Source of the DNA: Escherichia coli
GTDB taxonomy: Bacteria > Pseudomonadota > Gammaproteobacteria > Enterobacterales > Enterobacteriaceae
NCBI RefSeq assembly: GCF_003334305.1
Contig: NZ_QOWS01000030.1
DNA: 41,498 nt
Direction: 5' to 3' (one strand)
Below the pieces are notes generated by a model that was not told the origin of the DNA, did not search any database, and saw only the letters and a program-made list of their open reading frames with translations. The position numbers and the translations under genes were made by a program. Shown in pieces: positions 78 to 241 of the stretch; the first letter of the stretch is position 1, and every line of letters starts with the position of its first letter.

Positions 78-127
78 ACTTTTTCGTTGCTTTCGGTTTG
101 TTTGATATCCCGTGGCAACGGCGGCAT

Positions 128-155
128 ATATTACTGATTTCAGACTTGAGCGCAA
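128..155 (-). promoter_or_regulatory. Candidate sigma70 promoter for the tRNA-Lys cluster (-35 TTGCGC, 16-nt spacer, -10 TAATAT, GC-rich discriminator)
   Basis: On the minus strand: TTGCGC (plus 150..155), 16-nt spacer, TAATAT (plus 128..133), then GCCGCCG, the discriminator type typical of stable-RNA promoters. Motif reading only. Confidence 0.4.
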
Positions 156-241
156 CAAAAATTTCGATGCAGATCACTCAACTGCTTATGATTCGCACGA
201 CACGACCAGAAATAATGCGACTTCTGGTCGTGTGTTATGCA

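Follow-up and report, generated by a model that had tools for sequence, protein, structure and literature searches.

The cpoB–lysT spacer of Escherichia coli: a stable-RNA-type tRNA promoter with a processed leader and a hairpin that probably protects the cpoB mRNA 3' end

Introduction

Promoters of stable RNA genes, such as rrnB P1 and tyrT, combine a 16-bp spacer with an 8-nt GC-rich discriminator and a transcription start 9 nt from the -10 hexamer. In E. coli, some tRNAs are transcribed together with messages, secG-leuU and thrU-tufB being examples of such mRNA-tRNA co-transcripts. The 3' ends of mRNAs, in turn, may be marked by stable stem-loops without uridines that lie just before the steady-state 3' end; according to Dar and Sorek (2018), these structures protect RNAs from PNPase and RNase II (PMC6061677).

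Herein, we analyze a locus where all of these themes seem to come together, namely the spacer between cpoB (ybgF) and the tRNA gene lysT in a 41,498-nt stretch of the E. coli contig NZ_QOWS01000030.1 (assembly GCF_003334305.1), further referred to as the window. Published E. coli maps already contain the lysT promoter, the processed leader and the 3' end of cpoB, and the features we describe are either known or belong to known classes. The lysT promoter resembles rrnB P1 and tyrT in its non-consensus -35 hexamer, 16-bp spacer, GC-rich discriminator, start 9 nt after the -10 hexamer and processed stable-RNA product, with an A/T-rich tract abutting the -35 hexamer and predicted Fis-like motifs at approximately -72 and -92. 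It differs from them in having TAATAT instead of TATAAT as the -10 hexamer, and in that its upstream activating region shares sequence with the 3' UTR of the operon before it, whose transcription passes through the promoter; the likeness with respect to Fis, UP and ppGpp/DksA is drawn here from sequence and analogy. As at secG-leuU and thrU-tufB, message and tRNAs are made as a single primary transcript, in which tRNA-processing nucleases then part them. The difference is that the tRNA operon has its own strong promoter and co-transcription results from read-through, recorded in one genome-wide long-read data set only. Finally, the cpoB hairpin has the stable stem, the lack of uridines after it and the precise 3' end directly downstream that characterize the stem-loops described by Dar and Sorek (PMC6061677); it differs from them in that the RNA downstream is a tRNA operon and that the core of the stem is sequence-invariant across the family.

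Materials and Methods

Positions are given in window coordinates, and stranded features lie on the minus strand unless stated otherwise. A position in E. coli K-12 (NC_000913.3) equals 780631 minus the window position, a conversion that we verified on a published 3'-end record printing its flanking sequence. Transcription starts given in U00096.2 coordinates were converted with an offset to U00096.3 that we take to be 777 bp, and the resulting positions are accurate to ~1 nt.

For comparison, a scan of one genome per species yielded 80 cpoB loci from Enterobacteriaceae, the genera including Escherichia, Salmonella, Citrobacter, Enterobacter, Klebsiella, Kluyvera, Kosakonia and Raoultella. The spacer alignment built from them contains 79 sequences, 77 of them distinct, with a mean column identity of 80%.

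Results

Organization of the Locus

On the minus strand, cpoB (1033..242) is followed by a 164-nt spacer and then by lysT (77..2). The cpoB frame, taken from the ORF list, encodes 263 aa, ends with the TAA stop codon at 244..242 and corresponds to MG1655 b0742. The lysT gene (2..77) for tRNA-Lys(UUU) was recognized by ARAGORN and Rfam, in agreement with the MG1655 annotation, and it is the only tRNA gene that ARAGORN reported in the whole window. Across window 1..300, one base differs from E. coli K-12 MG1655: position 170, lying between the candidate Fis-like site at -72 and the A/T-rich tract described below, is G here and A in K-12. When window 1..1200 was searched against Rfam in E-value mode, no match was found in the spacer, the only strong matches being the tRNA and the CpoB/ybgF thermometer upstream.

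The same arrangement recurs throughout the comparative set: 78 of the 80 loci have the 5' sequence of tRNA-Lys 162–175 nt downstream of the point where the CpoB match ends, while the other two stop too close to cpoB to show whether it follows. Several genomes of Citrobacter and Kluyvera (L008, L020, L027, L048, L074 and L076) have a first tRNA after cpoB that starts with GGGGCG instead of GGGTCG, which would mean either an acceptor-stem change in the first tRNA gene of the operon or a different copy.

The lysT Promoter

The evidence supports the view that the spacer carries a sigma-70, stable-RNA-type promoter of the seven-tRNA lysT operon. The -35 hexamer TTGCGC (150..155) is followed after 16 nt by the -10 hexamer TAATAT (128..133) and then by the 8-nt discriminator ATGCCGCC (120..127), with G+C at six of eight positions. 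Judged by consensus alone, this promoter is no better than chance, with three of six matches in the -35 hexamer and four of six in the -10 hexamer (7/12 in total). A simple sigma-70 scan of window 1..1200 reported no site, which we judge to be a threshold effect arising from the poor consensus match of the two hexamers.

The promoter is instead validated by its mapped start at 119..120 and by the invariance of window 136..115. Cappable-seq places the start at U00096.2 779735 (score 67.9), that is, at G119, 9 nt after the -10 hexamer, and in SMRT-Cappable-seq the operon b0743–b0749 (lysT to lysQ) begins at 780511, corresponding to window 120; both published 5'-triphosphate starts therefore fall 8–9 nt after the -10 hexamer, the converted Cappable-seq position being good to ~1 nt. 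The segment 136..115 (CAGTAATATATGCCGCCGTTGC; -17 to +5), which spans the -10 hexamer, the discriminator and the start, is invariant in the 77 distinct Enterobacteriaceae sequences. Further invariant blocks of the promoter in the same 77 sequences are GTTGC (156..152) at the -35 hexamer and AAAT in the A/T-rich tract just upstream.

A stable-RNA-type promoter in this spacer had been proposed in a sequence-only reading of the window, and the mapped starts, together with the conservation, bear that proposal out. The start had been predicted at 120..125 on the minus strand, so that the mapped 119/120 lies at the edge of the predicted interval. The position of the promoter was stated less accurately: the elements themselves are real, but the -35 hexamer is 73–78 nt upstream of the mature tRNA 5' end and not within the 45–70 nt that had been claimed for the -35/-10 pair.

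Upstream of the -35 hexamer, the conserved A/T-rich tract GAAATTTTT (157..165), which contains the invariant AAAT, is a candidate proximal UP subsite. Farther upstream, we noted a candidate Fis-like 15-mer GTGCGAATCATAAGC (184..198, centred at -72) with one mismatch to GnnYRWWWWWYRnnC, whose G1 and C15 are kept in all 77 sequences, and a weaker candidate with two mismatches (204..218, centred at -92) that overlaps the loop and 3' arm of the hairpin described below. A third Fis-like 15-mer, centred at -114, is poorly conserved. We treat these sites as leads only, since so degenerate a motif occurs in the window 1.5 times per kb at one mismatch and 5.2 times per kb at two. To judge from the sequence, the proximal UP-like tract and the Fis-like sites at -72 and -92 probably belong to the lysT promoter. 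By analogy with other stable-RNA promoters, this one may also be under stringent control. Literature searches pairing lysT with ppGpp/discriminator or with Fis returned nothing specific.

The Processed Leader of the lysT Transcript

Between the start and the mature tRNA there is a 42-nt 5' leader (78..119). As shown by Agrawal, Mohanty and Kushner (PMC4176162), the lysT promoter gives rise to a single transcript of more than 1100 nt with all seven tRNAs, and northern analysis with a 5'-leader probe reveals leader-bearing species that build up upon RNase P inactivation in rnpA49 strains. Removal of the leader is thus RNase P-dependent, and the processed leader anticipated from the sequence is confirmed.

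The leader is predicted to fold at -9.1 kcal/mol (z = -2.85) with its first five bases paired, GUUGC (119..115) pairing with GCAAC (90..86). Across species, the 5' arm of this helix is invariant and the 3' arm has undergone transitions only, with pairing kept (UA 43/UG 30; GC 64/GU 13) and 93.6% of cells paired. RNAalifold recovers the helix, with wobble-only support, on the leader-only alignment and not on the whole-spacer alignment. We regard the helix as plausible and weakly supported by the comparison rather than proven, since the changes are one-sided and wobble-compatible and the alignment contains no compensatory double changes.

Two additional Cappable-seq signals fall within the leader. 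One is strong (U00096.2 779770, score 77.4) and corresponds to window 84, 7 nt before the mature tRNA, and the other is a weak start (779751, score 6.0) at window 103. No recognizable -10 hexamer lies upstream of the window-84 signal, and the 7-nt sequence upstream of lysT is absent at the other six tRNA genes of the operon (0/6).

A Conserved Hairpin Downstream of cpoB

Beginning 8 nt past the cpoB stop codon, the 3' UTR forms a hairpin at 200..233. Its inverted-repeat arms (200–211 and 222–233) are 12 nt long, 100% complementary and 10 nt apart; in the minus-strand RNA they extend to a 14-bp stem (233..220 with 213..200) closed by a 6-nt loop (219..214), with a folding energy of -21.2 kcal/mol (z = -7.2) that none of 200 shuffles equalled. 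The 41.5-kb window contains three loci with perfect stems of at least 12 bp and loops of 3–12 nt, where mononucleotide shuffles lead one to expect 0.025. The two other perfect inverted repeats of at least 12 bp with short loops are located at window 37679..37712 and 39299..39329. The stem is followed by CGUGCGAAUCAU, and there is no T-run after it on either strand. The repeat search and the sequence itself agree here with the earlier description of a perfect 12-bp hairpin after the cpoB stop that lacks a U-tract.

In E. coli, the hairpin is present as a single copy in all 5426 complete genomes and is at least 99% identical in 5379 of them, with no annotated feature beneath it. We considered a repeated element such as REP and rejected it in view of this single-copy occurrence.

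Beyond E. coli, RNAalifold predicts the hairpin independently on the spacer alignment, with three covarying pairs. The outer pairs change identity while remaining paired (GC 36/AU 24/GU 12; CG 47/UG 20/UA 3; AU 47/GC 12/GU 8), and the fourth stem pair is often U·U. Summed over all stem cells, G·U in the cpoB sense occurs 68 times and A·C, the wobble of the opposite strand, once. Such an asymmetry is to be expected only if the hairpin is under selection as RNA of the cpoB sense, and it argues against both a pure DNA palindrome and an antisense RNA. The inner six pairs (GACCAG/CUGGUC) never vary, GACCAG and TTCTGGTC being invariant blocks in the 77 sequences, and most of the loop-proximal A·U pairs are likewise invariant in sequence. 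Such invariance of the core exceeds what a structural block to exonucleases needs and points to a further, sequence-specific constraint; one idea, suggested by the positions of the elements, is that the core could coincide with upstream activating elements of the lysT promoter. A pseudoknot between the loop and downstream RNA (UCGCA with UGCGA in E. coli) was also considered and dropped, the complementarity being absent in the other aligned genera.

The cpoB 3' End and Read-Through into the tRNA Operon

Term-seq (supplementary file 1 of PMC7815308) records a primary 3' end for cpoB at K-12 780434 (window 197), 3 nt past the stem. The record is present in two of the three condition lists and missing from the middle one. 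This steady-state 3' end supports the suggestion, made from the sequence, that the hairpin may be a processing or stabilizing element.

Primary transcripts tell a different story about termination. In the SMRT-Cappable-seq operon table, each of the 15 cpoB-containing variants goes on at least into lysT, and cpoB is the last gene of none; this number was resolved from 31 mentions of b0742 and 32 of b0743, as rows name a gene in both the operon and the RegulonDB columns. The read-through variants have their starts between 777328 and 778953, upstream of tolB or pal, and their ends after lysT, valT, valZ, lysY, lysZ or lysQ. With transcripts from tolB or pal through cpoB entering lysT and reaching lysQ, the hairpin does not terminate transcription efficiently. 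The sequence-only reading had considered termination of tol-pal-cpoB here, naming cpoB read-through into the tRNA gene as the observation that would speak against it, and such read-through is what the long reads record. An intrinsic-terminator scan found nothing at the hairpin either, which we judge to be a true negative. The hairpin is like a canonical intrinsic terminator in that a stable stem-loop stands shortly past a stop codon; it differs in lacking a U-tract and in that the recorded outcome is read-through, most transcripts not ending there. SMRT-Cappable-seq would also catch 5'-triphosphate RNAs trimmed back to the hairpin and lists none, so such species may be minor or may lack a primary 5' end.

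Other Elements in and around cpoB

Several further elements were observed upstream of the spacer. The junction between pal and cpoB, together with the beginning of cpoB, is covered by a strong Rfam match to the CpoB/ybgF ICR thermometer (RF02782; window 1004..1142, minus strand), which scores 142 bits where the gathering score is 51. Within the part of cpoB encoding the signal peptide, a GC-rich hairpin is followed by a T-run (GCGGCCCCCTGGGCCGCTTTTGC; window ~957..985, minus strand), which looks like a premature terminator or attenuator; our simple terminator scan did not report it. Term-seq lists an internal cpoB 3' end here, at K-12 779674 (window 957); its score as an intrinsic terminator is 5.16, and its Rho score is not significant (PMC7815308).

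Discussion

Both the promoter and the hairpin of the cpoB–lysT spacer are real, conserved and functional. The scenario that we consider probable joins a stable-RNA-type lysT promoter and an RNase P-processed 42-nt leader with a stem-loop protecting the 3' end of the cpoB message. According to this scenario, the sigma-70 promoter, with its TTGCGC and TAATAT hexamers, 16-nt spacer and GC-rich discriminator, starts the lysT operon at G119 (or 120), and the leader, its first five bases presumably paired, is removed by RNase P at the mature lysT 5' end. The stem-loop, on the other hand, does not stop RNA polymerase efficiently, and transcripts from tolB or pal through cpoB enter the tRNA operon. 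RNase P, acting at lysT, or RNase E, acting in the leader, would then cut the co-transcript downstream, or Rho would terminate a fraction, after which 3'-to-5' exonucleases would trim the RNA back to the hairpin, which would both define and protect the steady-state 3' end of the mRNA. As for the event that lets exonucleases in, cleavage of the read-through RNA by either of these RNases, at the sites just named, appears the most likely, Rho termination in the short interval before lysT is possible, and weak factor-independent termination is the least likely.

Rho deserves closer attention, because the stem might be the protective stem-loop of a Rho-dependent terminator, where Rho would load past the cpoB stop, release the transcript before or within lysT and leave the RNA to be trimmed to the stem. 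The anatomy of the site fits the class described in PMC6061677: the stem is stable and lacks a U-tract, and the 3' end lies directly downstream. A Rho-dependent origin belongs to that class, to which the cpoB hairpin is assigned by anatomy. Because the RNA downstream is a tRNA operon, however, exonuclease entry could originate just as well, or more readily, from cleavage by RNase P or RNase E. The sequence-only reading had suggested Rho-dependent termination as well, and the published Rho table gives it no direct support: neither the cpoB 3' end nor lysT has a bicyclomycin-sensitive region there, the sole entry being internal to cpoB at K-12 779749, which is window ~882 on the minus strand (PMC7815308). 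Rho effects can be masked near strongly transcribed genes (Adams et al.), and the strong lysT promoter would mask the scoring of Rho-dependent read-through just before lysT. Nevertheless, the 122 nt between the stem and the tRNA contain 25 C and 27 G (C/G ~0.93), being neither C-rich and G-poor nor rut-like, a structured tRNA follows at once, and primary transcripts read through as far as lysQ. Taken together, we regard this explanation as rather unlikely. Direct stopping of some polymerases at window 197–199, with the hairpin acting as a weak, non-canonical terminator of the intrinsic type or as a pause site, seems to us improbable; the high stability of the stem and the mere 3 nt between its base and the 3' end would suit it, but with no U-tract, nothing found by the terminator scan and read-through as the only outcome in long-read sequencing, there is little room for such an activity.

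Two further readings give the conserved sequence a role other than as an RNA fold. In one of them, the inverted repeat would be a DNA operator, a regulator site for the lysT promoter centred at approximately -97, and the RNA hairpin would be incidental. The inner core GACCAGAAA/TTTCTGGTC does not vary in sequence, and the repeat lies in the usual upstream-activator zone of stable-RNA promoters, where it overlaps the Fis-like 15-mer at -92. Nonetheless, the outer pairs covary, the ratio of G·U to A·C makes sense only for RNA of the cpoB sense, a published RNA 3' end coincides with the base of the stem, and the -92 match is no better than the two-mismatch background, so we consider an operator of this kind very unlikely. 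In the other reading, the conserved sequence would encode an 18-residue peptide (MHNTRPEVALFLVVSCES; 18-codon ORF at 242..186, minus strand), translationally coupled to cpoB through an ATG that shares bases with the stop of that gene (TAATG). Escherichia, Salmonella, Citrobacter and Kluyvera keep this frame open and would encode similar peptides. Among the 77 distinct sequences, however, over half have it closed by a change of CGA to TGA, even though the nucleotides are conserved, and the invariance extends to third codon positions; we therefore rejected the ORF and give the peptide next to no credence.

Returning to the protective stem-loop, we would also like to comment on a bolder version, which we put forward with considerable doubt. 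The tol-pal-cpoB genes and the lysT operon could form an obligatory mRNA-tRNA unit without a terminator of its own, in which RNase P acting at lysT would in effect make the end of the envelope-gene message and the hairpin would be the exonuclease stop, while the invariant core GACCAGAAA/UUUCUGGUC would serve a second, sequence-specific role. Candidates for this second role are the binding of an RNA-binding protein and a dual use as DNA in the Fis/upstream-activator region of the lysT promoter. Our literature searches, which paired ybgF with terminator and cpoB with ProQ, returned nothing specific.

The cpoB hairpin offers a clear case of a textbook-looking hairpin after a stop codon that is not a terminator and probably acts as a 3'-end stabilizer, and the comparative data, through the covarying outer pairs and the 68 to 1 ratio of G·U to A·C, provide clean evidence for selection on the hairpin as RNA. 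If the invariant stem core does have a dual use as DNA, the stability of the Tol-Pal/CpoB mRNA would be linked to the control of the tRNA operon.
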